Shown: positions 2,675 to 23,996, numbered from the stretch's first letter. The stretch: DNA of 26,332 nucleotides from Smithella sp. (GCA_039679455.1 JBDKUX010000135.1:1-26332), one strand, 5' to 3'. The notes: generated by a model not told the origin, from the sequence alone. Program-made: numbers and translations.

Positions 2675-3292
2675 TTAAAAAGGCAAATCATCGTGGTTCA
2701 GGATGCGAATTCCCCGTTCTTTCATGATCTGAACGGTGTCAGCGATATTTCCTGCCGGCACATCAACGCCCCGACAGGCATCCAGAATAACACTGACATT
2801 AAATCCCATATTCTTTGCATCCACGGCGCTGTAATAGACACAATAATCAGTGGCGAGACCGCAAAAAAATAAATCCTGAACGGCGAACCCTTGCAGGTAT
2901 GAGTGCAGACCGGTGAAGGTCTTCTTGTCGTTTTCCATAAAAGTTGAATAGGAATCGATATTTATATGACCGCCTTTGCGGATGATCAGATCGACGGGGC
3001 GCAAGTCCAGATCTTTGTGAAAATCAGCGCCAAAGGAGCCTTGGACGCAATGAACAGGCCACATGACCTGTTGAATATCACCTATGGAGATAATGTCGTA
3101 AAGTTCTTTATTGTGGGTAGCAGCAAAAGAGACATGGCCCGTGGGATGCCAATCCTGGGTGGCGACTACTTTATCAAACTTTTGCGTAAGCGAGTTCACA
3201 ACCGGAATAATCTCGTTGCCTCCCGCCACAGCCAGCGCGCCGCCGGGACAGAAATCATTTTGTATATCCGTAATGATCAGGCAATTTTTCAT
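2675..3292 (-). CDS. pncA: Nicotinamidase/pyrazinamidase (isochorismatase-like hydrolase family)
   Basis: MKNCLIITDIQNDFCPGGALAV... with the catalytic-Cys context ...FFCGLATDYCV, typical of PncA/isochorismatase folds. The likely start is the ATG at 3292 (MKNCLI), 1 nt after the pyrG stop (TGAaATG). The ORF track's extended 3319 start would overlap pyrG by 26 nt. Confidence 0.8.
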   Translation of the reverse strand: MKNCLIITDIQNDFCPGGALAVAGGNEIIPVVNSLTQKFDKVVATQDWHPTGHVSFAATHNKELYDIISIGDIQQVMWPVHCVQGSFGADFHKDLDLRPVDLIIRKGGHINIDSYSTFMENDKKTFTGLHSYLQGFAVQDLFFCGLATDYCVYYSAVDAKNMGFNVSVILDACRGVDVPAGNIADTVQIMKERGIRILNHDDLPF

Positions 3293-3293
3293 T

Positions 3294-4955
<1,662 letters not shown>

Positions 4956-4971
4956 CTAAAAATACGAACGA

Positions 4972-6321
4972 TCAGCCGATTTCAGTTTTCACCACATCGG
5001 CGATCATCCGGCAGTATCTGTCCGTAACGCCGTCAGACGGTCCTTCCACCATGACGCGGCACATATTCTGCGTACCGGAATATCTGACCAGAACCCGCCC
5101 TTCATCACCCAATTCCTGCTCCACCTGCCCGATGACTTCCACAAGCCTGGGAACGTCGGAAATCTCCGGTTTGCTTTTCACGTCGATGTTAATCAGCTTC
5201 TGCGGAAAAATATCCATGAGGCGCGCCAGTTCGGACAGCGGCTTGCCTTCTTTGAGCATGGCGGCAATGAGCTGCATGGCCGCAATAATGCCGTCTCCGG
5301 TTTTGTGGTGTTCAAGAAAAATCATGTGCCCGGCATCTTCACCGCCAACGATGGCGCCCAGGCGCAGCATGTCCGCCAGGACGTAGCGATCCCCTACATT
5401 GGAGGCATGATGTTGAAATCCATACTTTTTACAGGCCAGTTTAAATCCCAGGTTGCTCATAACTGTGCTGACAACAAGATCATTCTTCAGCCGGTCTTCT
5501 TTTTTTAACATATATGCGCAGATGATGAGCAGCTGATCTCCTGAAATTTCATTTCCTTTTTCATCTACGGCAATCAAACGATCTCCATCCCCGTCAAAGG
5601 CCAGCCCGACTGCCGCCCCGGTTTGAATCACCTTATTTTTCAAATCCTGGGTATGCTGAGAACCGCACCCGTCGTTGATATTAATACCGTTGGGGGTATT
5701 GTGAATAACAGTAACGTCGGCGCCGAGTTCGTCAAACGCGTCGGGTGCGACCCGGTAAGTGGCGCCGTTGGAGGTATCCAGCACAATTTTCATTCCTTCC
5801 ATGGACAGTTCGCGGGGAAAGGAATTTTTTAGAAACACGATGTATCTGCCGTGGATGTCATTGATGCGGATGGCTTTGCCCATAGCTTTCGCAGGCGGCA
5901 GAAGATCAGCGAGATTACCGTCTAAAATCATATCTTCGATTTTGTTTTCCTGCTCATCGGTCAGTTTAAAACCATTGGCATCGAAGATTTTGAGCCCGTT
6001 GTCCTGAAAAGGGTTGTGGGATGCGGAAATAACAATGCCGGCATCGGCGCGCATACTCTGCGTGATGAAGGCGATTCCCGGAGTGGGCAGCACACCGACC
6101 AGATAGGAGTCTCCCCCCATGGAAGTAATACCCGCTTCCAGGGAACTCTCCAGCATATAGCCGGAAATACGGGTATCTTTTCCGATAATTACTCGAGCCC
6201 GGTGACTGTTTCTTTTAAATAGATATGCTACGGTTTGTCCGACTTTAAAGGCGATTTCCGCATTCATCGGATAGCGGTTGGCCTCTCCTCTGATCCCGTC
6301 GGTTCCGAATAATTTTCCCAT
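4972..6321 (-). CDS. glmM: Phosphoglucosamine mutase
   Basis: MGKLFGTDGIRGEANRYPM... N-terminus, active-site phosphoserine loop ISASHNPFQDNG, and metal-binding DGDGDR motif. 449 aa, typical length. GGAAG SD upstream. Confidence 0.93.
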   Translation of the reverse strand: MGKLFGTDGIRGEANRYPMNAEIAFKVGQTVAYLFKRNSHRARVIIGKDTRISGYMLESSLEAGITSMGGDSYLVGVLPTPGIAFITQSMRADAGIVISASHNPFQDNGLKIFDANGFKLTDEQENKIEDMILDGNLADLLPPAKAMGKAIRINDIHGRYIVFLKNSFPRELSMEGMKIVLDTSNGATYRVAPDAFDELGADVTVIHNTPNGININDGCGSQHTQDLKNKVIQTGAAVGLAFDGDGDRLIAVDEKGNEISGDQLLIICAYMLKKEDRLKNDLVVSTVMSNLGFKLACKKYGFQHHASNVGDRYVLADMLRLGAIVGGEDAGHMIFLEHHKTGDGIIAAMQLIAAMLKEGKPLSELARLMDIFPQKLINIDVKSKPEISDVPRLVEVIGQVEQELGDEGRVLVRYSGTQNMCRVMVEGPSDGVTDRYCRMIADVVKTEIG

Positions 6322-6347
6322 GAGTATTAACTTCCATCAGTATTGAA

Positions 6348-7655
6348 CTAGATCGTTCTAAATAAACCTGTGGATGATAGCACTCTTGATATTCTTTGGC
6401 AATAGTAATCAACAATACTCTGAAGCCATTTAACTCCTTTTGTGGATATATCAGGCGGGAGTTGATGAATTGATTCGATATACGGCATGGCGCCGTTTCT
6501 TCCGGATTGCAAGAAGCACTCGAGAAATACTTCTTGATTTCGCTGGATTACGCCATCATTTATTTTCCCGGAAAAGACGCCTGCAACACCATCCATGTGT
6601 TCAAACAAGGCCTGTTTTTCATCAAGCGGCTGTGCTTCCACTTGCCGGGCCGGCATGGAAACGGCTTTTTCCGCCATAATTTTAAGGCGTTTGAGGCGTT
6701 CTTGCATCGCCAGGGAAAGATTCTCCATCGCCCCGTCATAAATCAATAAGCCGAATTCCCGAGTCTCAAAAAACTGTTTTCTTACATGGGCATACCATGC
6801 TTCCAGGGCTTTAAGATTGGCCAAGTAGAGAATATTGTTTTCCAGAATATGCCGGAAACCGGGGTAGGCCGCAGGAATAAATTCCCGGACCTCCCGGGGC
6901 TGCGGTATATCGAATATCAATTGATTGCCTTGAGGATAGTCTTTTCTTAAGATGGAGCCAGCCGCCACAACAGCGCCGTAGCCGACGCGCAGCGGGCCGA
7001 CCATTCCACCCTGTCCGCCCAGAAAAATGGGGGGTTGGTTCAACATAACCCCCCGGGGAACATCGCCAATCAAAGAGGGGGTGGTTTTGTCGGCGTTAGG
7101 AGTAAAGTTAAAGTGAATGTAAGAACTTCCCACTTCACTGTGATTGCTGCGGCTTGTGCCCCCGGCCATCAGACAGTCACAGAAATTAATCAGGCTGCCC
7201 AGTGTGACAAACGGGAAAAGAATCGTCTGCTTCAACCCGACGCAGTGCGCTCCAACCGTCTGTTCCTCCAGAATGCATCCGTCGCGAACATGCGCGCCCA
7301 TTCCCATGCCGGCATCGTCGAGAAAAACGGAGTGAGAAAAGTAGCCGCCTTTCAACTCGACTTTCGAGCCCAGCTGGCAGTTATCGATGGTAACGGGAGC
7401 CTCATAACCGATGATACTCCCTGCCGATATGACCGTGTTTTTGCCGTAAATTCTACAGCCCGGATATATTTTAACATTGGAAGACGAGATGTTGTCAATA
7501 TTGACCTCGTCTCCTATATCAAGACTTTCAGGATTTCTTATACTTACACCTTTATCGAGCAGTTGGTGTATTTTTTCATAAGATTTTGGTTTAAAATCCA
7601 TCCAGTCTACCTGTTTGCGGGAGCGAATAATCTTTGGGCATAACCTTTGGATCAT
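6348..7655 (-). CDS. Hexapeptide-repeat (left-handed beta-helix) protein with a C-terminal alpha-helical domain. Possible acyl/acetyltransferase-like. Function unknown
   Basis: N-terminal two-thirds is rich in imperfect [LIV]-G-x-x-x-x hexad repeats (IGDEVNIDNISSSNVKIYPGCRIYGKNTVISAGSIIGYEAPVTIDNCQLGSKVELKGG...). No NTP-transferase G-x-G-T-R motif is visible. The true start may be the internal ATG at 7601 (MDFKPK). It sits between glmM and gdhA, 21 nt from the gdhA stop. Confidence 0.6.
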   Translation of the reverse strand: MIQRLCPKIIRSRKQVDWMDFKPKSYEKIHQLLDKGVSIRNPESLDIGDEVNIDNISSSNVKIYPGCRIYGKNTVISAGSIIGYEAPVTIDNCQLGSKVELKGGYFSHSVFLDDAGMGMGAHVRDGCILEEQTVGAHCVGLKQTILFPFVTLGSLINFCDCLMAGGTSRSNHSEVGSSYIHFNFTPNADKTTPSLIGDVPRGVMLNQPPIFLGGQGGMVGPLRVGYGAVVAAGSILRKDYPQGNQLIFDIPQPREVREFIPAAYPGFRHILENNILYLANLKALEAWYAHVRKQFFETREFGLLIYDGAMENLSLAMQERLKRLKIMAEKAVSMPARQVEAQPLDEKQALFEHMDGVAGVFSGKINDGVIQRNQEVFLECFLQSGRNGAMPYIESIHQLPPDISTKGVKWLQSIVDYYCQRISRVLSSTGLFRTI

Positions 7656-7676
7656 CGCCCCCGCGCCAGAAATTAA

Positions 7677-9035
<1,359 letters not shown>

Positions 9036-9104
9036 TTACTCCCCCTCTAAAAAATTTGTTATTTAATTTTGCGCATCAATCTGTGCATTACATCTTAAAA
9101 TTAT

Positions 9105-10106
9105 TTAAAGCTTCTCGATATCCTGAAGATTTTCATATTCCATCATCGTGGACATGGCTTTATTGTCCACTTCAAAACCTGCTTCATAGGCTGCCGCGAC
9201 CGGATTGAGGCCGCCGACCAGAATCATGCCGATTTTGTTAATATCCACGTGAGTTTGACAAATGGGATGACCGATACCACCTATTGATAAAACGCCATTG
9301 ATGCCGACCTCGTTAAAATCATCTATAATATCATCAACTAATGGACGGCTCAGTGCGGGAATTTCACGGAAGTTGGCCAGAATTTTACCCTCGCCTTCTT
9401 CCACGACTTGCCTGACGGAGGTCATTTTGCCGCGGATAAAGATTTCCGACGGATCAAGGGAGGAACCGGCGTAATGGATCAACTCCACAAATCTCAGGCT
9501 TTCTCCTTTTCTCATCTGGAGAATGCCGCCGAATTTGGAATCAATGGGGATGCCGTGCCTCAGGAGAACGCCGTTTATCACAATGCTGCAGACCGTCGCC
9601 AATCCGACTTTGCCCGGCGGCACCACAAGCTCGCCCAGAGTTTTTCCGGCCTCGGCTACGGCAATGCGGGAAGATACCGCCAGCTTTTTGGAAAAAACAG
9701 GTTTCATCACTTGCAGCGCAGCGGAAAATTGATCCTCCGGAAAAAAAGAAACATTTACCGGCACGAGGCCGCGCTTCTTCTTGATGTCAAATGTTGTTTT
9801 AAAAGAAAGAATGTCTATTCGGGAAATGGAAAGCCCCATCTTGTCCTGTACACGGGCGTCGGTAATTTCACTGAGACCCTGCTCTGTGACTACACGGCCG
9901 TCACGCCTGCCCACCAGGCGGGTGAGCCCGCGTTCATCCATGATCTTAAGATGATAGCGGACAGTCCTTTCACTGAGCTGTACATCGCGCTCCGACATCT
10001 TGCGGGCGATAACGCGCGCTCCCAGCGGCCCGGGACTTTCGTGCAGAATTTTCAAGATCAGGAGAACTTTGCGCTCAATGTCCTCCGGTTTAAAAAGCTC
10101 TTTCAT
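9105..10106 (-). CDS. nrpR: NrpR-like nitrogen regulatory protein: N-terminal winged HTH plus one DUF128/NRD domain
   Basis: MKELFKPEDIERKVLLILKILHESPGPLGARVIARKMSERDVQLSERTVRYHLKIMDERGLTRLVG... matches my recollection of the NrpR wHTH, followed by ~250 aa consistent with a single NRD (DUF128) domain. The track's ORF starts at a TTG at 10151 (MPIRQ...). The ATG at 10106 with GGGAGG immediately upstream is the more likely start. Length (333 aa) fits a one-NRD NrpR form. Confidence 0.72.
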   Translation of the reverse strand: MKELFKPEDIERKVLLILKILHESPGPLGARVIARKMSERDVQLSERTVRYHLKIMDERGLTRLVGRRDGRVVTEQGLSEITDARVQDKMGLSISRIDILSFKTTFDIKKKRGLVPVNVSFFPEDQFSAALQVMKPVFSKKLAVSSRIAVAEAGKTLGELVVPPGKVGLATVCSIVINGVLLRHGIPIDSKFGGILQMRKGESLRFVELIHYAGSSLDPSEIFIRGKMTSVRQVVEEGEGKILANFREIPALSRPLVDDIIDDFNEVGINGVLSIGGIGHPICQTHVDINKIGMILVGGLNPVAAAYEAGFEVDNKAMSTMMEYENLQDIEKL

Positions 10107-10113
10107 GCGCCTC

Positions 10114-10148
10114 CCAATACGGCAATCGGCTATCATTTGCCGTATTGG
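10114..10148. promoter_or_regulatory. 12-bp perfect inverted repeat CCAATACGGCAA-N11-TTGCCGTATTGG abutting the nrpR ribosome-binding site. Candidate operator or 5'-UTR stem-loop
   Basis: Arms at 10114-10125 and 10137-10148 are exact reverse complements. On the coding (minus) strand the proximal arm is followed directly by GGGAGGcgcATG (SD plus nrpR start at 10106). Confidence 0.35.
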
Positions 10149-10155
10149 CAATACT

Positions 10156-10189
10156 TACAAATTACTTTTTTGTCAAATACAAATTTGTA
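10156..10189. promoter_or_regulatory. AT-rich palindromic elements upstream of nrpR: TACAAATT half-site (10156-10163) and 12-bp perfect palindrome TACAAATTTGTA (10178-10189), flanking a TTGACA -35-like hexamer on the minus strand
   Basis: Read directly from the sequence. TACAAATTTGTA is self-complementary. The same half-site recurs 22 bp away in direct orientation. Minus-strand TTGACA corresponds to plus 10171-10176. Confidence 0.3.
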
Positions 10190-10323
10190 ACTTTTTTAAT
10201 TTTTTAGGCTCAATTTTGTATCATTGACAGGGACGCAAACCGGCGTCGAATACGCCTTAAAAGAAAACATCTTAAATATTAACTACATATTATCAGATAC
10301 TGAGAGGATGGTTGTCTATGGTA

Positions 10324-13300
10324 TTATTGATTAAGTCGTGCTTTTATCCGTTCGGCTATCACTTCAACCTGCTCGCTGAAAAGCACTTCCAGAGAAATGG
10401 ATTCCAGACATTCATCATTCCAGGGCAAATTGTATTCGTTGATGAGGTTCCGGATATCCTGGTAACGATAACCCAGCACTTTTATCTTTTCCCTGAGCGG
10501 CAGTGCTTCATTATAGAGGATATGAATCAAAAGCAGGTTAATTACTATGTTGTTCTCTCCCAAAAGGGGAATGATAACAAGGGGTACACCGTCGGATTTG
10601 CCTCGTCCAACATAGGCGTGGCCGGAACTGACGATCATTTTTTTCGTGCCCATCAGCGTTGCCGGCTGGTCGGCGCGTGACTGCATATACATAGCCACAC
10701 CGCCTTTAGCTTTGATGGCAATTGTCGAATTTTCCATTGGATTTCCCTGTTCGTCCAGTCCGCTTACATCGTAGGCGGTATATCCCCGTACAGTCGCAAT
10801 GGCCGGCTGGATACGTTTAATCGTCATGATATTGCGATAAGTCAAATTTTTCACAGAGAAATTAAGTGATTCCAGTAAATTATAAATAATGCCCTCAAGT
10901 TTTTTCTCCTTGCGGCTGGTGCCCACCGTAACCGTTTTCGCCTGATGGCGAATGGCATCTATCGGACGGGTAAGTTCGTCAATGGCCGTTCCCAACGTTA
11001 CATCCAGAAGATCAAAAGGAGAAATAAAGTCTCCCTTAATTTTAAATTCCTGACGAATGTCGTGCAGCGGCAGTTTGCCCACCACATATTTGAGCAAGAG
11101 CGGCAGATCGGCGATTGTTTTAGCCTCCATCAGACCAAACGCACCGTTTAGACGACGATTATTGAACTGTAAATAAAAATCATTGATAATCCGATGGAAG
11201 GAAGCATCGGCAATCATATCAAAAACTGATAATTTCCTTTGCATTCTCTGCGCGAGTTCCACCGCCAGGCGACCGCGGAATTCACGAAAGATCTGCGCCT
11301 CTTCATCGATGGCGCGCGCCGCAAAATAACCCCACAAATGACCGGCCATTGTATTCAGGATAACCGGCAGGGGAGCGGGTGCGACGGGTATGGGAATGAC
11401 GGCATCGGCAATTTGATGAAAACGGTTCTCTCCTTCATCAGCAAAGACAATCACTGAAGCTTTATGGGCTTTAAAAATCGCCACATCCTTAACGACATCT
11501 TCCACGACGGTTGCCGGATTGCCGGCGGCGCAGACAAGAATTAAAGGTTCGGAAGACAAATCGATATGCTTTTTATTTTCAACAATGTCGGATGAAATGG
11601 TTTTATAGCAGAGCTCACTGAGTTTTATGCGCACTTCATCAGCCGCCGCCTTATTGGGGCCGCTGCCGACGATAGCCCAGTATCTTTTATCTGCGGCTTT
11701 TTTCACCGAGGCGGCGATATCGTCACGCCGTGCGAACAGCTGATCCATCAGGCCGGGTACGGATTCCAGCCGGAGTAATTGCCGGGCGATGTCATCGTTG
11801 GACCGCGTCCCCAGAAGTTGCGCAAAAAATAAAGCCAGCACCTGTCCGGCAACGATCTGGGCATAAAAAGCTTTGGTCGAAGCGACGGACATTTCTATGT
11901 CGCGTCCGTCGCTGGTATAAAATACGCCATGCGATATAGCGGTAATGTCGGACTGCCGGCGATTGACAATGGATATAATATGCGCGCCGCGTTCCCTGGC
12001 CATGGCCACAGCCCTGTTGGTGTCGGTAGTGGTGCCGGACTGCGTGATGGGAATGACCAGCGTGTCGGGACCTTCGGCATTCAGCCCGAATCCACTCAAT
12101 TCGGAGGCAACCCGGGCCAGAATATTAAGATGCCTGCTCTGGAGGTAATATGACAATGCGTCGGCCACCACCTGTCCCGCAACTGCCGCCGTTCCGTGAC
12201 CGACGACGACGATGTTCTTTAGCATGCCGTTTACCAGGGCTTTGCGCACCGCATCGGGAACTATATCCGTTCCCATGTTGAAATCGACATGCGCAGAGGA
12301 GTTATTGAAGCCGGTGATACGGTATTTGCCGCGCAGCGTTCTTTTGATCGACAGGGCGGATTCGGAAATTTCCTTGAGGAAAAAATGCGGATAACCGCCG
12401 CGGTCGATATCCCGTGTAGTAATCTCCGCCGTTTGCAGATTGTTTTCCGTTAACTCAATCATTTTGCCGTCATAGCAACAGACGGACAGCCCCGCTAGAC
12501 CGCTATTGCAATTCTGATCCAGAACAAATATCTGGCCGGCAACCCCGCCACTGCCCGCCTCACCGTTCATCTTGATGAAACGCGGCATGACCTCCACCAG
12601 GCCGTAAAGTTCCGAAGAAAACATGTATTGGTCAGCGTTTAAACCGACGTAGATCGACTGGCCGCTGCCTTTGAGCGCCAAAAACATTTTACCGGGCTCG
12701 AGAGCACTGGTCATGGCAATAGCATGCGATCCTTCAAAATCATTGACGGCCAGACGGAATGCCTCCGCAAGATTTTGCCCCGCCTTCAGATACTTCTCGA
12801 TCTGCAGCGGTATGATTTTTGTGTCCGTTGTTACCTGTTGGGCAATCAGGTCGCCACCAGCCTCCAGGTCCTGCCGCAAAGCCGGGTAGTTATCTATATC
12901 GCCATTTAAAACAGCATTAATCTGCGCCTGGGCACCGGGATAAAAGGGATAAACAGGCGTGGACGGAACTGTTGTGTAATTGTTTACCGGATGGCAATTT
13001 TCTTCGGTGATGGAACCGACGGACGCCCAGCGTGTATGCGTCAACGCCGTTTCACAAGCTGCTTCCGATGCACAGAAACATTGCAGTATCCGGTCGCTTT
13101 GAATGAATTTTCTCAGTTCAGCGACATTACGCCCCAGTTCGCCGACAATAGAAAAGGTTTTATAGGTAAACGCAACGCTGATCCCGCCGGAGCAGCCCGT
13201 TTGATCGTTGGAAATAAAAATGGAGCGGTTAAGCAAATCACTTTTTTTAGTCCGTTGCTGATATTCCTCAGTCAACCCGTTTTCCCTAATTAGAAGAACA

Positions 13301-14040
13301 ACATCCTGCAGTTCTGTTTCATTTTTCAGTTCAAAAACCAGCTGGATACCCGCCGAATCTCTTCCCCGGACTTCCAGACGATCCAGGGCATTTAGAAGAA
13401 GATTGAATTTTCTGTATTTTCGGAAAGCATCAGGTTGTACTAAGGCATGTTTTTCCGCATCGGACAATGCCAGCACTTTCTGTATATTGGCCAGAACATC
13501 TTTCTCCAGCATCCAGCAAACATCTTTGAGCAGAAGAATACGACTGTTGATTATCTCCAAATCGACGGAGCCAATTACAACAGCTTGATTTTCAAGCCAT
13601 TTTTCTTCATCTACCAGAAACCGCTTCATTTCACCGGCAACATTAACCAGATCCGCCGCACGTTGCGTGTGGAAAAAAAGAAATTCCTGTGCATCCTCGC
13701 GTTTAAGTTCCAAAACGGCCGCATTCATGGCTTCGACAGTATCCATGCCGTTTAAGTAACCGGTTACGGAACCTTTGGGGGCAACAGTTTGCAAGCCGTT
13801 TGCCCTGACTTTTTTCCACAATTCGTTTATTGTCAGATCAGCCGTCGTATCCGCATCTTTTTTCGCCAGACGGCAAGTCATTAAGCCTGCGAAACCGCAA
13901 TTGAGCTGCCCGGAAAGCAGCGGAAAAAAGATAATCGCCGGTCCTTGAACGTAAGCAGGATGCCGGCCGATATAAATTCGGCAACTGGAAATTAGACAAA
14001 GAAAAGTTTTTATAATATTGAATATTTTTATATAAAACAT
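10324..14040 (-). CDS. Giant GlmS-like glutamine amidotransferase: class-II (Ntn) GATase domain with large insertion, tandem SIS domains, ~400-aa C-terminal extension of unknown function
   Basis: 1238-aa ORF. A CGFAGL nucleophile motif sits at residue 48, matching the MCGIVG pattern of GlmS/PurF/AsnB. GlmS-like motifs follow: RLEVRGRDSAGIQ, HTRWASVGS, LNGDIDNY. Two SIS domains are present: VVVGHGTAAVAGQ...IPITQSGTTTDT and YWAIVGSGPNKAAADE...LILVCAAGN. There is no canonical start codon directly before Cys48, so a propeptide is implied. An AGGAT SD lies 5 nt upstream of the ATG at 14040. Confidence 0.8.
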   Translation of the reverse strand: MFYIKIFNIIKTFLCLISSCRIYIGRHPAYVQGPAIIFFPLLSGQLNCGFAGLMTCRLAKKDADTTADLTINELWKKVRANGLQTVAPKGSVTGYLNGMDTVEAMNAAVLELKREDAQEFLFFHTQRAADLVNVAGEMKRFLVDEEKWLENQAVVIGSVDLEIINSRILLLKDVCWMLEKDVLANIQKVLALSDAEKHALVQPDAFRKYRKFNLLLNALDRLEVRGRDSAGIQLVFELKNETELQDVVLLIRENGLTEEYQQRTKKSDLLNRSIFISNDQTGCSGGISVAFTYKTFSIVGELGRNVAELRKFIQSDRILQCFCASEAACETALTHTRWASVGSITEENCHPVNNYTTVPSTPVYPFYPGAQAQINAVLNGDIDNYPALRQDLEAGGDLIAQQVTTDTKIIPLQIEKYLKAGQNLAEAFRLAVNDFEGSHAIAMTSALEPGKMFLALKGSGQSIYVGLNADQYMFSSELYGLVEVMPRFIKMNGEAGSGGVAGQIFVLDQNCNSGLAGLSVCCYDGKMIELTENNLQTAEITTRDIDRGGYPHFFLKEISESALSIKRTLRGKYRITGFNNSSAHVDFNMGTDIVPDAVRKALVNGMLKNIVVVGHGTAAVAGQVVADALSYYLQSRHLNILARVASELSGFGLNAEGPDTLVIPITQSGTTTDTNRAVAMARERGAHIISIVNRRQSDITAISHGVFYTSDGRDIEMSVASTKAFYAQIVAGQVLALFFAQLLGTRSNDDIARQLLRLESVPGLMDQLFARRDDIAASVKKAADKRYWAIVGSGPNKAAADEVRIKLSELCYKTISSDIVENKKHIDLSSEPLILVCAAGNPATVVEDVVKDVAIFKAHKASVIVFADEGENRFHQIADAVIPIPVAPAPLPVILNTMAGHLWGYFAARAIDEEAQIFREFRGRLAVELAQRMQRKLSVFDMIADASFHRIINDFYLQFNNRRLNGAFGLMEAKTIADLPLLLKYVVGKLPLHDIRQEFKIKGDFISPFDLLDVTLGTAIDELTRPIDAIRHQAKTVTVGTSRKEKKLEGIIYNLLESLNFSVKNLTYRNIMTIKRIQPAIATVRGYTAYDVSGLDEQGNPMENSTIAIKAKGGVAMYMQSRADQPATLMGTKKMIVSSGHAYVGRGKSDGVPLVIIPLLGENNIVINLLLIHILYNEALPLREKIKVLGYRYQDIRNLINEYNLPWNDECLESISLEVLFSEQVEVIAERIKARLNQ

Positions 14041-14208
14041 TATTCATCCTATGCCACAGGATTTTGTTTTTTAAAGGTACGCCTGCGGTGATTTTTTAAT
14101 GCTATTTACTGTCTGTTGGAAAAGAATACAAGATATGCAATTACTGTGCGCTGCCGTGTATTCGACAACAATTTAAATATTGTCAGATATAAATAATTTT
14201 GGTTGTGT

Positions 14209-14514
14209 TTATTTATTTTTCCCATTGTTTATGCCCACCCTGGCCATTTTATCCGTAAATGTATTGCGATTCATGCCGAGAAATGCCGCCGCAGTACTTT
14301 TCACATTGTTTGACCGTCGTAAGGCAACCTTGAACAAACCTTTTTCCACCATTGTCATAACTTCTTCATAAAGTTTGCTTTTGCGGCCATCAGACGCTGA
14401 TAAAAATGTAACAAGTTCTTCCAGTCTTTTTTCTATCAATCTTTCCACAACCAACTTCGGAGGTTCCTTAACTTCTTCAGTTTGAACTTGATCGTTTTGC
14501 ATTTCCGGCCGCAT
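14209..14514 (-). CDS. Small Fis-family DNA-binding protein (Fis/NtrC C-terminal-type HTH)
   Basis: C-terminus ...LYEEVMTMVEKGLFKVALRRSNNVKSTAAAFLGMNRNTFTDKMARVG is a classic Fis-type HTH. The track ORF starts at a GTG at 14544 with no SD. The ATG at 14514 (MRPEMQ...) has AGAGGAA 8 nt upstream, so that start is chosen. Confidence 0.6.
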   Translation of the reverse strand: MRPEMQNDQVQTEEVKEPPKLVVERLIEKRLEELVTFLSASDGRKSKLYEEVMTMVEKGLFKVALRRSNNVKSTAAAFLGMNRNTFTDKMARVGINNGKNK

Positions 14515-14568
14515 TTTTGAAGTTCCTCTCTTTTCGAATTCCACTTTTAAAACCAGTATTTATCGAGG

Positions 14569-15090
14569 CTAAATCTGAGTTTCCGATATTTTTAAAATTA
14601 TAACACCGATTATAATCCCGACAGCAACCCAACTCATCACTATCAGTGAAAGCCGCTCCAGGGGATGATCCAGATATTTTTTTACTTCAACTTCCACCTT
14701 TTCCTCATCCAACCTGTCCATAATGGAGCTTACAAGTAAAGCATGATTCTCGAATAGATTGGAAAAAATATAAAAGCCTTTTGTCGTCGTCAGCAGGAAA
14801 TAAACTTTCTTTTTCAAAACAACTACAGCCAGATGCGTAATTTCCATCCATCCGAATTCTTTAGAACGGAAAAAATTTTTAATTTTCAATCCCTGATCGT
14901 GAACAATTATTTCTCTTTTCACCATACCCATGCCCACAGCCAGAGAAGCCAGAAAAAGAACCGCCGCAGCTATGATCTCCCAGCGCTGGCCATTGATCAG
15001 ACTGATGAAAAAAAGTAAAAATAAAAGCATTACTATCAAGAACAAAGGTATAAGAAATGCTTTCCTGATTTTAAAAAAAGTCTCGTTCAT
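14569..15090 (-). CDS. Small integral membrane protein (2 N-terminal TM helices, soluble middle, C-terminal TM). Function unknown
   Basis: 173-aa ORF with hydrophobic stretches LIPLFLIVMLLFLLFFISLI, IIAAAVLFLASLAVGMGMV and VMSWVAVGIIIGVIIL. Co-directional with, and immediately upstream of, the Fis-like gene. No recognisable catalytic motif. Confidence 0.5.
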   Translation of the reverse strand: MNETFFKIRKAFLIPLFLIVMLLFLLFFISLINGQRWEIIAAAVLFLASLAVGMGMVKREIIVHDQGLKIKNFFRSKEFGWMEITHLAVVVLKKKVYFLLTTTKGFYIFSNLFENHALLVSSIMDRLDEEKVEVEVKKYLDHPLERLSLIVMSWVAVGIIIGVIILKISETQI

Positions 15091-15308: not shown

Positions 15309-16838
15309 GTGTTCGTTAAAGTTTTTGGCATGAGTATCATCGGCATGGAATCTTACCCTGTTGCCGTGGAAGTTGATATATCCGACGGCTTGCCCCAGTT
15401 CTCCACGGTCGGCCTGCCTGATGCTTCTGTTAAAGAAAGCCGGGACAGAATCAAAGCTGCAATAAAAAACTCCGGTTACCGCTTCCCGCGCAGCCATGTG
15501 ACAATAAATTTGGCACCGGCTGATATAAAAAAAGAAGGCACCGGCTTTGACCTGCCGATTGCCGTCGGAATTCTCTCCGCTGAAGAGTTGATTAAAGAAG
15601 ATTCTTTCGAAAATTGTTTTTTCATCGGCGAACTTTCTCTTGACGGCAGCATTAAAAGCGTGCGGGGTGTACTACCTGCCGCCCTGAAAGCAAAGGAACT
15701 GGGCTTTAAAAAAGTTTTTGTCCCTGAAGAAAATGCCGCTGAAGCGGCGATAGTCGAAGGGATTTCCGTCTTTGGGGTAAACACTCTGCCGGATGTTGTC
15801 GAATTTTTAAATAACCGGAAAATCATAGAACCGCTTGTTTTGGATATCAGCAACATTTTCCGGGAACATCGCCAATATGAAATTGATTTCAATGAAATCA
15901 AGGGGCAGCGGCAGGCTCTTCGCGCTCTGGAAATCGCCGCCGCCGGGGGTCATAATGTAATCATGATCGGCCCTCCCGGCTCCGGAAAAAGCATGCTGGC
16001 CAAAAGAATGCCCACAATTCTGCCCGACCTCAATTTTGAGGAAGCCATCGAAGTAACAAAAATCTTTTCTGTTTCCGGATCATTAAGTAAAACAGACACT
16101 TTGATTGCCGTGCGTCCTTTCCGGGCGCCTCATCATACAATTTCGGATGCCGGACTAGTTGGCGGCGGGCAGACACCGCATCCCGGCGAAATCAGCCTCT
16201 CCCATCTGGGAGTCCTTTTTCTAGATGAGCTGCCGGAGTTCAGAAGAAATGTTCTGGAAGCTCTCAGACAGCCTTTGGAAGAAGGTACCATAACAATTAC
16301 GCGCTCTTCGGTTACGGCATCATTTCCCGCCAGGTTTATGCTGATTGCCGCCATGAATCCCTGCCCCTGCGGGTATTTCGGTGACAGAATCCGCACTTGC
16401 CGCTGCTCCCCCCAGCAGATTCGGCAATATCAGGCAAAAATATCAGGCCCCCTGCTGGATCGGATCGATTTGCACATCGAAGTTCCCTCGATTAAATACC
16501 GCGCCCTGTCCAACAAGGAAGAGGGAGAATCCTCCGCGACGATAAAGGAACGCGTCAATGCAGCGCGCAACCGGCAGATAAAACGGTATGAAGGCAGCGG
16601 CATCTTTTGCAACGCCCGGATGACCGAAATGCAGATCAAAACTTACTGCTCCATTGATGAAGAATCGCACAGGCTTTTGGAAATGGCGATTGAAAAGCTG
16701 GGCTTAAGCGCCCGCGCCATCAACCGCATTTTAAAAGTCTCCCGCACTATTGCCGATCTGGAAAATAAAAAAGCCGTTGAACCGGCTCATGTTGCCGAAG
16801 CAATTCAATATCGAAGCCTTGATCGCAGTTTAATTTAG
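15309..16838 (+). CDS. comM: YifB/ComM family Mg-chelatase-like AAA+ ATPase
   Basis: N-terminal Lon-like/ChlI domain, Walker A GPPGSGKSM, Walker B LFLDELPEF, and the C-terminal zinc-ribbon-like CPCGYFGDRIRTCRCS. GTG start at 15309 with a GGAG SD 9 nt upstream. An alternative ATG lies at 15330. Confidence 0.9.
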   Translation: MFVKVFGMSIIGMESYPVAVEVDISDGLPQFSTVGLPDASVKESRDRIKAAIKNSGYRFPRSHVTINLAPADIKKEGTGFDLPIAVGILSAEELIKEDSFENCFFIGELSLDGSIKSVRGVLPAALKAKELGFKKVFVPEENAAEAAIVEGISVFGVNTLPDVVEFLNNRKIIEPLVLDISNIFREHRQYEIDFNEIKGQRQALRALEIAAAGGHNVIMIGPPGSGKSMLAKRMPTILPDLNFEEAIEVTKIFSVSGSLSKTDTLIAVRPFRAPHHTISDAGLVGGGQTPHPGEISLSHLGVLFLDELPEFRRNVLEALRQPLEEGTITITRSSVTASFPARFMLIAAMNPCPCGYFGDRIRTCRCSPQQIRQYQAKISGPLLDRIDLHIEVPSIKYRALSNKEEGESSATIKERVNAARNRQIKRYEGSGIFCNARMTEMQIKTYCSIDEESHRLLEMAIEKLGLSARAINRILKVSRTIADLENKKAVEPAHVAEAIQYRSLDRSLI

Positions 16839-16935
16839 TGATATGGCAATAATATTTTACAGTTCAGATCAAACAGATTCTTCCGGGAGCAAAAACTCCA
16901 TTCCGAAGAAGACTACTTGGAGGAAGAGAAAAATT

Positions 16936-18033
16936 ATGGAAATCAAAATTAAAAAAGCGTCGCCCACGAAAAGGAAAGTTAAACCAACTGATGAATCAAA
17001 GCTTGGCTTTGGCAAGATATTTACCGACCATTTTTTCAACATTAAATATAAGACAGGAAAAGGCTGGTATGATCCGATTATTGAACCTTACCGTCCCCTG
17101 CAATTAGAGCCGACGGCCATGTGTCTGCATTACGCCCAGGAAATTTTTGAAGGACTGAAAGCATACCGCGGTCAGGATGGATCAATTTATCTTTTCCGTC
17201 CCATCGAAAACATTAAAAGAATGAGCGTTTCCGCGGAAAAATTGTGCATGCCGCCCATGGATGAAGAAATCTTTTACGATGCCATCAAAAAACTGGTTAT
17301 TTTGGAAAAGGACTGGATACCCCGCGGTGAAGGCACATCCCTTTATATCCGCCCCACAATGATCGCTACGGAGGCCGCTTTGGGCGTTCATCCAGCCAAT
17401 GAATTTCTCTTTTTTATTGTGGTGGGACCGGTGGGAGCCTATTATCCGCAGGGATTTTCCCCGACCAAGATGTATGTATCCGAAGAATATGTCCGGGCAA
17501 CCAAGGGTGGGACAGGCAACATTAAAGCGGCAATTAATTATGCAGCAAGTCTCTATGCCAGTCAACTTGCCACAAAAATGGGTTATACCCAGGTCTTATG
17601 GCTGGATGCCGTCGAAAAGAAGTATGTGGAAGAAGTGGGCACCAGCAACATTTTCTTCGTTATCGGCGATGAATTAATCACTCCGCCTCTGGCCGGCACC
17701 ATCCTGCCGGGAGTCACTCGTAATTCGGTCATCAAACTGGCGGACTTCCTGGGAACAAAAGTCGTCGAAAGACCGATTACTATTCAGGAAGTCATTTCAT
17801 CATCCGAAAATGGAACACTCCGGGAAGCTTTCGCCTCAGGGACCGCCGCGGTCATTTCTCCGGTCGGACAACTTTATTTCCGCGGCAAAGAATATTTAAT
17901 CAACGGCGGTAAATCCGGTCCATTAGCCGAAAAATTGTATACCGAAATTTTGCAAATCCAGTATGGCCGGAAAGAAGATCCCTTTGGCTGGCGCGTCAAA
18001 ATTTTGGACGGGAAAAAAGTTAAAAAGGGGTGA
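16936..18033 (+). CDS. ilvE: Branched-chain amino acid aminotransferase (long, class IV; YwaA/IlvK/eukaryotic-BCAT type)
   Basis: MEIKIKKASPTKRKVKPTDESKLGFGKIFTDHFFNIKYKTGKGWYDPIIEPYRPLQLEPTAMCLHYAQEIFEGLKAYR... aligns with the ~363-aa BCAT family. PLP-Lys region ...TKGGTGNIKAAINYAAS. The track ORF begins at 16843 (MAIIF...) without an RBS. The MEIKIK ATG at 16936 has a GGAGGAAGAGA purine-rich SD. Confidence 0.88.
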   Translation: MEIKIKKASPTKRKVKPTDESKLGFGKIFTDHFFNIKYKTGKGWYDPIIEPYRPLQLEPTAMCLHYAQEIFEGLKAYRGQDGSIYLFRPIENIKRMSVSAEKLCMPPMDEEIFYDAIKKLVILEKDWIPRGEGTSLYIRPTMIATEAALGVHPANEFLFFIVVGPVGAYYPQGFSPTKMYVSEEYVRATKGGTGNIKAAINYAASLYASQLATKMGYTQVLWLDAVEKKYVEEVGTSNIFFVIGDELITPPLAGTILPGVTRNSVIKLADFLGTKVVERPITIQEVISSSENGTLREAFASGTAAVISPVGQLYFRGKEYLINGGKSGPLAEKLYTEILQIQYGRKEDPFGWRVKILDGKKVKKG

Positions 18034-18084
18034 ATTGAGTTTTTTTCCCTTGTATACAAGCACTTGGATTTGTATTCCACAACA

Positions 18085-18120
18085 TTGTGGAAAAACTTGT
18101 GGATAACCTTGTGGATAATA
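18085..18120 (+). promoter_or_regulatory. Array of three same-orientation DnaA-box-like 9-mers (TGTGGAAAA, TGTGGATAA, TGTGGATAA) at ~11-12-bp phasing
   Basis: TGTGGATAA is the reverse complement of the consensus DnaA box TTATCCACA. Perfect copies lie at 18098-18106 and 18110-18118, with a 1-mismatch copy at 18087-18095. A weaker opposite-orientation TATTCCACA lies at 18073-18081. An AT-rich tract follows at 18175-18230. Confidence 0.4.
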
Positions 18121-18327
18121 TTCGCAAGTATGCAATTGTTAGTAGATTACACCAAATTGCATAAAATTTGAGCAACGATATTTATTTAATATTATCAATT
18201 ACATATAAATATATTCTTTATTCATGGCCACTTAGGGCAATATCGGTCAAAGGATATAAACTATATTAAAAAAGAAATATTTCTCGGGGATGTTTTCCCG
18301 GTTTTTTTCATAAGGAAAAGCAATAAA

Positions 18328-19026
18328 ATGTTTTTAAAAAGAAATAAACAGCTTATTATCACTGTGGCAGCCATTTGGTTGTTCTGTACTTTATTCATTT
18401 TTTTGGCGCCGAAAACCGCCATAACTTTGACGACTGCGCCGATAAGTGAGGTGGTCGCCCGGCTGCAGCAGAAGTACGAAAAAACCCGGGACTTCAAAGC
18501 CGGTTTCATTCAACAAACGACAATAAAATCCATAAAGAAAACAGATACAGAAGAAGGAACGGTCTTCTTTAAAAGCCCCCAGAACATGCTTTGGAACTAT
18601 TCCCGTCCCAAAGCTAAAAAACTGGTAATCAATTCCCGCAAAGCCTGGCTTTACCTTCCCCAGGAAAAAGTCGCCTATGTCCAGGAAGCCGATAACATTC
18701 TTAAATCGAGAACCTTAATTAAGTTTTTATCCGGCTTGGGTAAATTAGAAAATGATTTCACTATTCAATATGCCGCACCCCAGGCTCTGGACAAACAAGG
18801 CAATTATTTACTTTACTTAATCCCACGGGAGAAAGCGCCCACTTTACAGCCTTTTCAGGTAACGGTTGATAAGAACACTTATCTGATTTTACAGGTCAGC
18901 TTTGCCGACGCCTTGGGCAATACTACATTGCTGAAATTTTCCAATATTTCCACCAATATTGGCATTGCTGAAAAGATGTTCCAGTTCCAGCCGCCCAAAG
19001 GAGTCTCCATTTTTAATATGCCTTAA
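18328..19026 (+). CDS. lolA: Outer-membrane lipoprotein carrier protein LolA-like (periplasmic chaperone)
   Basis: N-terminal signal peptide (KQLIITVAAIWLFCTLFIFLAP), ~230 aa. Text typical of the LolA family: ...FKAGFIQQTTIKSIKK...TVFFKSPQNMLWNY... Strong AT-rich leader with AAGGAAAAG before the ATG. Confidence 0.8.
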   Translation: MFLKRNKQLIITVAAIWLFCTLFIFLAPKTAITLTTAPISEVVARLQQKYEKTRDFKAGFIQQTTIKSIKKTDTEEGTVFFKSPQNMLWNYSRPKAKKLVINSRKAWLYLPQEKVAYVQEADNILKSRTLIKFLSGLGKLENDFTIQYAAPQALDKQGNYLLYLIPREKAPTLQPFQVTVDKNTYLILQVSFADALGNTTLLKFSNISTNIGIAEKMFQFQPPKGVSIFNMP

Positions 19027-19098
19027 CAGTACCTGCACGACCATCAGGGAGAAAGTAACCAGCCATATTAACATTTTGACTTATATGCGAGGTATGAA

Positions 19099-19866
19099 GT
19101 GCAACAGTATGTTCTTACACCGGCCGCCGGAAAACGTTTAATCGGAAAAGCGCTGGTTTTTCACCCCGTGGTATCATCCGTTCTGAAAACAGGAACTATT
19201 GTTATTATAGCCGGAACGACGAATGGCTATGTTGCCGAGGAGATACTGACGTCCATCGGACAGGCGCAGGGCTTCTCCCGGCGGCGATTTTTCCGGGGAA
19301 TCACTCTTCCTCCGCATCGACCGGCAAGTGAAAGCGGGCGTTTGCCCGACGAAAGCGAGTTTCCCGGTGATGTGGTCATCACCAACGGAATCTGGCAAAA
19401 AGGCAAAACGATTTTCGATGTTATAAACGACCTGAAGGAGGGGGATCTCATCCTGAAAGGCGCCAATGCCCTGGATTTACGTCATCAGCGAGCGGCCATT
19501 CTGATCGGGCATCCCCAGGCGGGAACAATCGGCGCGGCATTCCAGGCAGTTGTGGGAAGGCGCGTTCATCTCCTTCTGCCCATCGGACTGGAGAAGCGCA
19601 TCGATGGGGATTTAGACGCCATCGCCCGGCAGCTCAATGCTCCCGCAGCAAAAGGACCGCGCTTTTTTCCCGTTCCAAGTCCGGTTTTTACCGAAATCGA
19701 TGCTATTGCCCTTTTAACAAGAGCTAAAGCAGAGATAATTGCCAGCGGGGGAGTATGCGGCGCAGAGGGAAGCATCTGGCTGGCAGTCAACGGAACCGAT
19801 CAGCAGATGAATGACGCCGACGCGCTCATTAAGGCGATTATTTCGGAACCGCCGTTCACATTCTAA
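19099..19866 (+). CDS. Conserved hypothetical protein (255 aa). No family recognised
   Basis: Clean ORF with coding-like composition, [50 protein letters not shown]...[13 protein letters not shown]. Convergent with the radical SAM gene (10-nt gap between stops). Confidence 0.5.
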
Positions 19867-19876
19867 TCTTCTTTCC

Positions 19877-20803
19877 TTAACCAAACGGTTTGTCGCTTGC
19901 AAAATCGGGCGTCAATTCAATGTCGCTGACTTCCTGAATAAAAAGATTATCAAAGCCCAAATCCAGGGCGTAATCCAGTACCTGCTGATACTCCTCGGCG
20001 GTAATCCGGCGCCCCAGCAGTGGATGATTGCGCACCTTGTCAATGGGAGTATATTGCGACATTAAACTGATTGTCACCGACGTTGATATCTCCTTTTTAA
20101 TTAAGCGAAAGACCTCCTTCGAATTTTCCAGTTTGCCCGGCAGAACCAGATGGCGCACGATAACTCCCCTTTTGGCCAAACCATTTTCCATTTCCAGACC
20201 GTCACCCAGCTGCCGCACCATTTCCTTCAAGGAATCGAGGGCGTAGCGCGGATAGTCAAAAACGCCGGAAAACTCGGCGCCGTCTTCCGCAATGCCGTAT
20301 TTGAAATCAGGCAGATAAATATCCACCATCTTATCGAGCATTTTTATAATACTGGGGCTTTCATATCCGCCGCAGTTGTAGATAAAGGGAATTTTCAGCC
20401 CCTGCTCCCGCGCCAGCAGAAGCGCTTCCATGATCAACGGCGTCTGGGGAGTGGGCGTCACGGCATCGATATTGTGGCAGCCGCGCTTCTGCAGATCAAG
20501 CATTACCTGCGCAAGCGCCGGAGGATCAAGTTCCTGTCCTTCCACCTGATGGGAAATCTGGTAATTCTGGCAGTAAATACAGCGTAAATTACAGGAGGAG
20601 AAAAAAATAGTTCCGGCTCCCCCCGTTCCCGAGAGAGGCGGCTCCTCTCCATGATGGGGCAAGGCGCAATCCATGATAATCTTCGCTGGCAGGCGGCAGA
20701 AACCAAGCTCCCCCTGTGTACGGTCAATGTGGCATTGCTGCGGACAAAGCCAGCAATCTTTTAAAACTTTTTTCAGAAAAGATATCTTTTCCGTCAGTTC
20801 CAT
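19877..20803 (-). CDS. Radical SAM protein of the pyruvate-formate-lyase-activating-enzyme-like family (CX3CX2C plus N-terminal auxiliary Cys cluster). Possibly the AmmeMemoRadiSam-system type
   Basis: Radical-SAM core GTIFFSSCNLRCIYCQNYQIS (cf. PflA CLMRCLYCHN). N-terminal CWLCPQQCHIDRTQGELGFC extra cysteines. A GAGGAG SD lies 5 nt upstream of the ATG at 20803 (MELTEK...). The track start at 20824 adds 7 residues. Confidence 0.78.
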   Translation of the reverse strand: MELTEKISFLKKVLKDCWLCPQQCHIDRTQGELGFCRLPAKIIMDCALPHHGEEPPLSGTGGAGTIFFSSCNLRCIYCQNYQISHQVEGQELDPPALAQVMLDLQKRGCHNIDAVTPTPQTPLIMEALLLAREQGLKIPFIYNCGGYESPSIIKMLDKMVDIYLPDFKYGIAEDGAEFSGVFDYPRYALDSLKEMVRQLGDGLEMENGLAKRGVIVRHLVLPGKLENSKEVFRLIKKEISTSVTISLMSQYTPIDKVRNHPLLGRRITAEEYQQVLDYALDLGFDNLFIQEVSDIELTPDFASDKPFG

Positions 20804-20840
20804 TATGACTCCTCGGCTAAGCATGAAAGAAGAAGCGGTA

Positions 20841-21908: not shown

Positions 21909-21931
21909 TTATGTTCCACCAGGCAAAGGCC

Positions 21932-21960
21932 TTGACATGAAAACTTTTGTCTTGTAAATA
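21932..21960 (+). promoter_or_regulatory. Candidate sigma70-type promoter for proA-nadD (TTGACA-N17-TAAATA)
   Basis: TTGACA at 21932-21937, a 17-nt spacer, TAAATA at 21955-21960. Located ~135 nt upstream of the proA ATG in the divergent patatin/proA intergenic region. Confidence 0.45.
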
Positions 21961-22092
21961 TGCTAAGTTTTTTTGACTAAAGCTGAAGATCGCTGCGTTT
22001 TAAATTTATCAACGATTATGACAGCAGGAGCGGCTTTTACCAATAATTGCGAAAAAAGCAAACAGTTTTATCTCTTGGCATAGGATAATCAA

Positions 22093-23349: not shown

Positions 23350-23996
23350 AATGGGGTTTATTGGGAGGAACATTTGATCCGATTCATTTCGGTCATTTGC
23401 GGGCAGCAGAAGAAATGCTGAAAATTTTCGATTTAAATCGCATTTTCTTTATCCCTTCCTCACGTCCGCCTCACAAGCTGGAAGCTCAAATCACCTCTTT
23501 CTATCATCGCGAGCAGATGGTGCGGGCAGCCATTGACGGCAATGTTTCTTTTTCCTTTTCTGATGTGGAAAATTTAAAATCGGGTAAATCTTATTCCGTG
23601 GAAACAGTCGAATATATATTGAACAAGTACATGGAAGACCTGGAACTTTATTTCATCCTCGGTCAGGATGCTTTTCAGGCGATCACCACCTGGAAAGACT
23701 GGGAAAAACTTCTCCTGCTCTGCAATTTTGCCGTGATGACCCGCCCCGGTTATAAGCAGGAAGGTCTGGAGAAAATTCTTCCCGCCGATTTTTCGTCCCG
23801 CTTTGTATTTGATAAGGAAATCGACGGATATCGAGGGCCAACCGGGCATTTTATCTATTTCCGCCATGTAACTTTTCTGGATATATCCTCTTCCCGCATC
23901 CGCGAAATGGCAAAAACCGGCCAATCCATTCGTTACCTTACCCCGGACAGTGTCCGCAACTATATCATTAAGAATTCGCTATACAAGAATACTTGA
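23346..23996 (+). CDS. nadD: Nicotinate-nucleotide adenylyltransferase
   Basis: [23 protein letters not shown]... (HxGH nucleotidyltransferase motif) and a C-terminal ISSSRIRE (ISSTxxR) motif. 216 aa. Confidence 0.9.

Follow-up and report, generated by a model that had tools for sequence, protein, structure and literature searches.

What kind of biosynthetic function is encoded where a double-length glutamine amidotransferase, regulators of nitrogen metabolism and genes of amino-sugar synthesis stand side by side? The question is raised by a stretch of 26,332 nucleotides from Smithella sp. (GCA_039679455.1 JBDKUX010000135.1:1-26332), analyzed here at its full length and referred to as the window. 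Positions 4972–15090 of the window carry a minus-strand block encoding, in gene order, a small membrane protein, a Fis-like protein, a giant relative of the glucosamine-6-phosphate synthase GlmS (hereafter the giant), an NrpR-type repressor, the glutamate dehydrogenase GdhA, a left-handed β-helix (LbH) protein and the phosphoglucosamine mutase GlmM. An earlier note on this DNA had read the block as a nitrogen-regulated module for an amino sugar or a novel aminated metabolite, rather than as a housekeeping operon. Our analysis points most likely to an unusual form of the ordinary pathway, and not to a new pathway; we consider it probable that the block is the hexosamine neighborhood of a Smithella-like Syntrophales bacterium, organized around a long-form GlmS, into which an nrpR-gdhA cassette has been inserted in one sub-clade.

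GlmS catalyzes the committed, usually essential step in the synthesis of amino sugars and cell-wall precursors, and its control varies by lineage, including a ribozyme in Firmicutes, the GlmY/GlmZ small RNAs in enterobacteria, and feedback by UDP-N-acetylglucosamine (UDP-GlcNAc) together with phosphorylation in eukaryotes. Among its known gene neighborhoods are the glmUS operon of the E. coli type and the cdaA-cdaR-glmM-glmS cluster of Firmicutes. The Smithella block has in common with them the clustering of genes for consecutive steps toward UDP-GlcNAc, but it contains no full glmU, presents a different order and different partners (the Fis-like gene, an LbH-only gene and pyrG), carries an inserted regulator/dehydrogenase cassette and appears to have several promoters.

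The giant (1238 aa; 10324–14040, minus strand) contains GATase_6/7 and SIS domains, and was aligned with E. coli GlmS (b3729, EC 2.6.1.16) and with four distant members of its own family. It shares with the E. coli enzyme the N-terminal-nucleophile (Ntn) class-II glutaminase, the two SIS subdomains, the lysine-bearing C-tail and all the catalytic and substrate-binding residues examined, whose roles (Arg73, Asn98, Gly99, Asp123, Lys485, Glu488, His504 and Lys603, in E. coli numbering) we take to be those generally assigned to GlmS. The predicted nucleophile is Cys48, invariant in the alignment and situated in the motif LNCGFAG, which aligns to the E. coli MCGIVG; the glutaminase residues R-G-x-D-S 225–229, HTRWA 335–339, N379-G380 and D406 are invariant in the alignment, as are the isomerase and sugar-phosphate residues Q667-S668-G669-T671 (SQSGxT), VASTKAF 719–725, K806, E809 and H825, the last three corresponding to E. 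coli K485, E488 and H504. The C-tail (HQAKTVTVGT, 10921–10950), with Lys1035 at the position of E. coli Lys603, keeps A1034, K1035, V1037, T1038 and V1039 invariant with respect to E. coli GlmS and in 33 diverse family members. A functional GlmS would be the most economical reading of the giant, because the catalytic set is intact and because one of its distant relatives occupies what is presumably the canonical glmS slot of its genome (see below). Full-length homologs across Syntrophales are 54–93% identical to the giant; public records name it merely “SIS domain-containing protein,” and JGI names it GlmS.

Compared with the 609 aa of E. coli GlmS, the giant is double in length, due to a leader, several inserts and an additional C-terminal domain. 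The N-terminal leader comprises 47 residues (13900–14040) and precedes the Cys48 codon (13897–13899), immediately ahead of which the window sequence holds no in-frame start codon. The leader is conserved at the protein level in Syntrophales (CRIxIGxxPxxVxAPAIIFFP...QLNCGFAG) and missing from distant homologs, whose proteins begin MCG; it would imply a proteolytic or autocatalytic maturation, unusual for GlmS. The remaining additions are two inserts at residues ~56–215 and ~236–330, a helical insert of ~120 aa that separates the second SIS subdomain from the C-tail (residues ~912–1030; 10951–11307), and a C-terminal α/β domain of ~190 aa (residues 1045–1238; 10327–10908). No Pfam match was found at E ≤ 10 for the 56–215 insert, the pre-C-tail insert or the C-terminal domain. 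An AlphaFold2 (AF2) model of residues 905–1238 (pLDDT, the per-residue model confidence, 90.3) consists of a helical bundle, a disordered C-tail and the α/β domain; the disorder is as expected for a tail undocked from its SIS domain. Foldseek ranked GAF, Cache and LOV domains first, weakly (best E 3.5e-3), and a GAF/PAS-like fold is assigned to the C-terminal domain with moderate confidence. Within this domain S1121, R1122, K1133 and D1150 are invariant across the 33 diverse family members, which would fit a ligand pocket. Scanning the whole window at gathering thresholds gave no Rfam match, so that neither a glmS ribozyme nor a glutamine riboswitch nor any other Rfam family precedes the gene of the giant.

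The second hexosamine component is the LbH protein (6348–7655, minus strand), consisting of a GlmU-acetyltransferase-like β-helix (ORF residues ~27–245; ORF, open reading frame) followed by a helical C-terminal domain. The protein gave no Pfam match at default thresholds, and nothing meaningful was found for its helical domain in Pfam at E ≤ 10. GlmU models match it over their C-terminal third only (TIGR01173 positions 239–433, E 2e-15, 56.6 bits vs. a cut-off of 366.85), its family profile retrieved GlmU chains from the PDB (5vmk, E 9.4e-7), and hhalign placed it on residues 241–443 of E. coli GlmU (b3730) with 95% probability, linker helix included. On this profile and alignment evidence, the LbH protein is a homolog of the acetyltransferase (C-terminal) domain of GlmU, which bears out the acetyltransferase-like character that the earlier note had given it. 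What it has in common with GlmU is the linker helix plus the acetyltransferase β-helix, and its gene adjoins glmM and the long glmS. On the other hand, it lacks the N-terminal nucleotidyltransferase (uridylyltransferase) domain of GlmU, since the match to the GlmU models begins at model position ~239 and the remainder of the protein is helical, and it has the extra helical domain. For want of that domain, the LbH protein is unable to carry out the uridylyl transfer of GlmU, and its architecture does not justify its public names, “UDP-N-acetylglucosamine pyrophosphorylase” or bifunctional GlmU (P0121), probably an over-annotation. The likely start codon of the LbH gene is at 7601, giving 417 aa, in agreement with the NCBI model P0121. 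In the HMMER alignment the acetyltransferase-site positions Asn386 and Lys392 of GlmU are kept as N165 and K172, and H119, H154 and H163 are invariant in the LbH family, being candidate catalytic bases.

The adjacent GlmM (4972–6321, minus strand) is an ordinary phosphoglucosamine mutase, with four PGM_PMM domains, an equivalog-level score (TIGR01455, 572 bits vs. a cut-off of 447.55) and the phosphoserine loop SASHNP at residues 99–104 (ISASHNP). The block does bring together an amidotransferase of the GlmS type, a genuine GlmM and a homolog of the GlmU acetyltransferase domain, as the earlier note had recognized; of the GlmS-GlmM-GlmU reaction order that it saw here, uridylyl transfer is not covered by the LbH protein.

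Is this arrangement more than a coincidence of one contig? Relatives of the giant are encoded by 474 stretches in GTDB species genomes, the best 80 of which all belong to Syntrophales (Smithella, Smithellaceae, Syntrophaceae and Syntrophus, including S. buswellii). Every protein of the window was compared by tblastn with these 80 loci, and the counts were restricted to the 49 loci whose flanks reach 3 kb or more on the upstream side and 6 kb or more on the downstream side. The LbH gene is present in 48/49 (44 on the same strand), the Fis-like gene in 47 as a same-strand neighbor of the giant/LbH pair, pyrG in 45 (44 on the same strand), a divergent comM in 43, and 39 loci have the membrane-protein gene ahead of the Fis-like one; glmM occurs in 29 loci, nrpR in 19, and gdhA in 16, always directly 3′ of nrpR. 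The commonest layout is Fis-LbH-giant-pyrG (18 loci), followed by giant-nrpR-gdhA-LbH-glmM, the same as in the window (16 loci), giant-LbH-glmM (five) and giant-nrpR-LbH-glmM (three); in five others, from Syntrophus among them, LbH(-glmM) lies close by on the opposite strand. The conserved unit is therefore the Fis-like gene, the long glmS and the LbH gene, together with pyrG in most loci; glmM accompanies the LbH gene in many lineages, and nrpR-gdhA is a cassette restricted to one Smithellaceae sub-clade, outside the conserved core. The recurrence of the core order in dozens of Syntrophales genomes places the arrangement beyond chance. Gene order is, in this sense, kept for the hexosamine genes but not for nrpR and gdhA.

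Two further observations concern the long glmS of related contigs. In a further set of them (L015, L018, L019, L022, L045, L049, L056 and L057), a gene for a PPDK_N protein (ATP-grasp, of the phosphoenolpyruvate-utilizing type; 863–885 aa) lies directly upstream of the giant homolog, with a gap of 1–50 nt or an overlap, and in L022 the ammonium transporter gene amt is found just upstream; the PPDK_N protein is a possible kinase-type regulator of this GlmS form. Besides, the metagenome-assembled genome Smithellaceae STF1_233 carries the long GlmS on two contigs, one with the PPDK_N-giant arrangement (L019) and the other with giant-nrpR (L051), at coverages of 6.0x and 12.6x; as the coverages differ, two paralogs and mixed strains are equally likely.

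The nitrogen-related part of the block lies between the giant and the LbH gene. NrpR (9105–10151, minus strand; PF01995, E 1.3e-81; PF08461, E 1.1e-20) has a winged helix-turn-helix (HTH) plus an NRD domain, both in common with methanogen NrpR; its NRD domain is single, as in Methanosarcina NrpRI. Its true start is probably the ATG at 10105, behind GGGAGG. The following gene encodes NADP-specific GdhA (7677–9032, minus strand; ELFV_dehydrog domains; NF006929, 750 bits vs. a cut-off of 536). The methanogen NrpR operator is GGAA-N6-TTCC; as an operator here this site was rejected, its matches in the window being only coding or irrelevant, with one exact site inside an unrelated ORF. According to the work cited in PMC9765008, NrpR of methanogens is a 2-oxoglutarate-responsive repressor of nif and glnA (Lie and Leigh, 2003; Lie et al., 2005), and methanogen nrpR itself is reported there as not nitrogen-regulated (PMC9765008). 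In the window the host is bacterial, nrpR adjoins a nitrogen-assimilation gene, gdhA, and the candidate site is at nrpR itself, where a palindrome overlaps the promoter region. Literature searches pairing NrpR with Syntrophus or Deltaproteobacteria retrieved no report on the two together; the papers with bacterial names treat methanogen NrpR or mention NrpR in passing.

The nrpR promoter region (10106–10180, minus strand) consists of a conserved TTTGACA, a weak -10 element and then the palindrome ATACGGCAA-N4-TTGCCGT, with the core ACGGCAA-N4-TTGCCGT; the 11-bp arms CCAATACGGCA lie at 10138–10148 and 10114–10124, and the palindrome occurs once in the window. Practically all loci with nrpR (L002–L066) have promoter and palindrome at the 5′ end of this gene, and elsewhere in 1.58 Mb of related sequence only a conserved glmM coding stretch and scattered weak matches resemble them. 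The palindrome is accordingly a candidate autoregulatory operator of NrpR. In one locus lacking nrpR-gdhA (L003, 13718–13900), the same promoter and palindrome stand directly ahead of LbH-glmM, and the first codons of the LbH gene (MKQLFKP) resemble the start of nrpR (MKELFKP), which suggests that a deletion joined the LbH gene to the nrpR start and left LbH-glmM under an nrpR-type promoter. Loci that never had nrpR carry a different, TTGACC promoter-like element ahead of the LbH gene, and the giant has its own conserved promoter-like upstream element without palindrome, near which no convincing sigma-54 -24/-12 elements were seen by eye. No intrinsic-terminator-like site was found in any minus-strand spacer of the block; over the window, such sites were at background level (17 found vs. 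15.5 expected in shuffled sequence). Neither promoter nor terminator was seen between gdhA and LbH (75 nt up to the likely LbH start), between LbH and glmM (26 nt) or between glmM and pyrG (40 nt), so that transcription starting at the nrpR promoter is likely to continue into LbH-glmM-pyrG. The conserved promoter-like elements ahead of the giant and of nrpR suggest at least three transcription units, which we propose to be mem-fis, the long glmS, and nrpR-gdhA-LbH-glmM-pyrG(-pncA).

Beyond Syntrophales, the giant proved to belong to a wide family without a name, of proteins of ~1150–1260 aa from Syntrophales, Desulfobacterales, Planctomycetota and others. A full HMMER scan of 1.84 billion cluster representatives (50%-identity clusters) gave 606 clusters with E ≤ 1e-30, among which there may also be canonical GlmS; the best 150 of the 606 are long-form proteins of ~1100–1260 aa with 33–52% identity, or fragments thereof. 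Outside Syntrophales the long GlmS is found in diverse gene contexts, most of them of a housekeeping kind. The long GlmS adjoins rpmH-rnpA-yidD-yidC-mnmE-mnmG in L081 and purH in L089; in L087 it lies directly 3′ of a NagB-family gene, with an FGGY kinase, a class III aminotransferase and a formyltransferase as further neighbors. A Desulfobacterales locus (L084, 524–15413) presents a glutamine-handling run, made of glnA, a class-I glutamine amidotransferase, a split gltB, the long GlmS, hisH, hisF and glutamine-dependent nadE. Most telling is L090 (5624–18340), where the order is rplM-rpsI-glmM-[long GlmS]-acpS-nnr-alr-tsaE-tsaB-rimI-tsaD-groES; the slot between glmM and acpS is, we assume from the gene order of Mycobacterium and Streptomyces, that of canonical glmS, and the placement argues for a housekeeping GlmS. 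Literature searches for large GlmS forms returned nothing relevant. The long-form architecture and its constant LbH partner appear undescribed in the literature searched, and the database names are generic.

As for the rest of the block, ORF calling tiles 4972–15090 with seven co-directional ORFs. The earlier note spoke of nine minus-strand genes, while its own title named seven and its spacers numbered six; the co-directionality and the spacer lengths were reproduced, the count of nine was not, and the gene identities agree with Pfam or curated-profile matches for all the named domains. The spacers are, in gene order, 54, 168, 172, 72, 21 and 26 nt, the first shrinking to 24 nt if the Fis-like gene starts at GTG 14544, and the two long ones hold no credible additional ORF. 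The membrane protein (173 aa; 14569–15090, minus strand) has three hydrophobic segments in hydropathy windows and no Pfam match at E ≤ 0.001; the relaxed threshold (E ≤ 10) gave weak matches only, with similarity to bacterial-PH/DUF6585. The Fis-family HTH_8 protein (14209–14544, minus strand; 111 aa from GTG 14544; PF02954, E 2.1e-9), a small DNA-binding protein, scores under both Fis equivalog cut-offs (42 bits vs. 122 for NF002517; 31.4 vs. 99 for NF001659), HTH_8 being its only match, and ATG 14514, behind GAGAGG, is its likelier start. The same-strand run extends past 4972 with the conserved neighbor pyrG after a 40-nt spacer (CTP synthase, itself a glutamine amidotransferase; 3294–4931; NF003792, 861.5 bits), then pncA (nicotinamidase; 2675–3319; NF008623, 222 bits), with a 26-nt overlap at the 3′ end of pyrG, and a NarX-like histidine kinase with dCache, HAMP and PAS domains (305–2518). 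On the other side, 15309–25980 holds a comM-like Mg-chelatase ATPase gene divergent from the block, a class IV aminotransferase, lolA, an unannotated 255-aa ORF, a radical-SAM protein, an unannotated 355-aa ORF, a proA-like gene of the aldehyde-dehydrogenase family, a nadD-like cytidylyltransferase-like gene and a 643-aa SPFH protein; the proA-like and nadD-like names are provisional, based on Pfam domains only. Much of this region is syntenic across Smithellaceae.

How might these parts work together? The Ntn-glutaminase and two-SIS isomerase core of the long GlmS would make glucosamine-6-phosphate (GlcN-6-P) from fructose-6-phosphate and glutamine, and its extra modules (a cleavable leader, the glutaminase inserts, the four-helix insert and the GAF/PAS-like domain) would most likely confer allosteric control. 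GlmM would turn GlcN-6-P into glucosamine-1-phosphate (GlcN-1-P), which the LbH protein may acetylate, probably to N-acetylglucosamine-1-phosphate, unless it acts on or with the long GlmS. In the Smithellaceae sub-clade, the nrpR-gdhA cassette between the long glmS and LbH-glmM would bring its own sigma-70-type promoter and operator-like palindrome; the spacing, the lack of terminators and the L003 arrangement suggest that nrpR-gdhA-LbH-glmM-pyrG is probably one transcript under 2-oxoglutarate-responsive autoregulation by NrpR, the long glmS and the mem-fis pair having putative separate promoters. A bolder version takes the long GlmS as a self-regulating hexosamine gate, in which the four-helix insert and the C-terminal domain respond to a signal from nitrogen or hexosamine metabolism (2-oxoglutarate, glutamine, UDP-GlcNAc or GlcN-6-P), whose leader is cleaved for activation and whose dedicated partner is the LbH protein, NrpR of Smithella coupling LbH-glmM-pyrG to 2-oxoglutarate through a new operator; as a whole, we regard this version as unlikely.

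A number of points weigh against our interpretation of the block. The giant falls below the curated GlmS cut-offs (TIGR01135, 237 bits vs. 418; NF001484, 260.8 vs. 381), the curated match spans residues 324–910 only, and a Cys48 placed behind 47 residues would require processing before catalysis. In the LbH protein, the GlmU His363, which we take to be the catalytic base (E. coli numbering), is not conserved in the alignments, a further difference from GlmU: it aligns to Phe140 (HMMER) or Ser136 (hhalign), in a low-confidence stretch, and AF2 gave a model of low quality for this protein (pLDDT 59). The palindrome is restricted to nrpR itself, L003 excepted, and the candidate operator is unlike that of methanogens, yet it has the same 14-bp GG...CC frame. 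The co-transcription within the three proposed units is deduced from the DNA sequence, and the argument from L090 depends on the actinobacterial gene order. Moreover, if these genomes also encode a canonical glmS of 610 aa and a complete glmU, the long form may have another role; tblastn with E. coli GlmS and GlmU found no canonical copies in the flanks of the fetched loci, a search that covered flanks only.

Among the alternatives, the block could be a mere neighborhood of vertically inherited, co-directional housekeeping genes (long glmS, glmM, pyrG and gdhA), in which NrpR controls only itself and gdhA and is not coupled to the hexosamine genes. Synteny across Syntrophales extends from comM to beyond pyrG, as is typical of stable chromosome segments; moreover, the giant's own palindrome-free promoter region, the separate TTGACC element of the nrpR-less loci and the unrelated neighbors of distant long GlmS genes all agree with such an account. 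On the other hand, the LbH gene has stayed beside the giant despite at least four different rearrangements (placed upstream or downstream of it or inverted nearby, and with or without glmM), which argues for selection on the pair, no promoter or terminator is seen in the window between gdhA and LbH-glmM-pyrG, and L003 has an nrpR-type operator directly ahead of the LbH gene; we hold this explanation to be somewhat unlikely. The nitrogen regulation postulated by the earlier note is in this sense plausible, considering the conserved nrpR promoter and palindrome, the terminator-free spacers, L003 and the glnA/gltB and amt contexts, but lineage-specific and probably not block-wide, as nrpR and gdhA are found in a minority of the loci and the promoter of the giant has no palindrome.

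Two other explanations bear on the chemistry. The LbH protein might have no catalytic role and serve the long GlmS as a partner or regulator, modulating the enzyme for example by binding UDP-GlcNAc, acetyl-CoA or GlcN-1-P: it is a near-obligate neighbor of the long GlmS rather than of GlmM (48/49 vs. 29/49 loci), the position of His363 is unconserved, and its added helical domain has no assigned function. We consider this reading improbable, since some acetyltransferase-site positions (N165, K172) are kept and the invariant H119, H154 and H163 could serve as the base; furthermore, no recognizable LbH gene is among the called neighbors of the long GlmS outside Syntrophales, as judged by Pfam labels and lengths for a family that itself has no Pfam match. 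The proposal of the earlier note, a dedicated nitrogen-regulated route to an amino sugar or a novel aminated metabolite, separate from a housekeeping UDP-GlcNAc route served by canonical glmS and glmU elsewhere, is the other. It would account for the sub-threshold curated scores and atypical architectures of the giant and the LbH protein, for the sensor-like extra domains of the former, and for the recurrent association with nitrogen genes (nrpR-gdhA here; glnA, gltB, hisHF and nadE in L084; amt in L022), as well as for the kinase, aminotransferase and formyltransferase neighbors in L087. Opposed to it are the unchanged substrate-binding and catalytic residues of GlmS, the breadth of the family and the position of the long form in L090, presumably the housekeeping glmS slot; besides, most loci keeping the giant, LbH and pyrG are without nrpR and gdhA, the adjacent GlmM is an ordinary one, and no tailoring enzymes are found within the Syntrophales block. 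A dedicated route thus seems unlikely to us, and an unusual form of the ordinary hexosamine pathway remains the preferred reading.

Should Syntrophales and other anaerobes have no GlmS besides the long form, this would point to a new mode of allosteric control for the enzyme. Should the long GlmS in addition be a self-regulating gate, an undescribed link between nitrogen status and the flux of cell-wall precursors, at both the protein and the transcription level, would replace the control exerted elsewhere by ribozymes and small RNAs. The palindrome at a bacterial nrpR promoter offers a concrete candidate operator for NrpR outside Archaea, and the probable misnaming of the LbH protein could introduce errors when the metabolism of syntrophs degrading alkanes and fatty acids is reconstructed.

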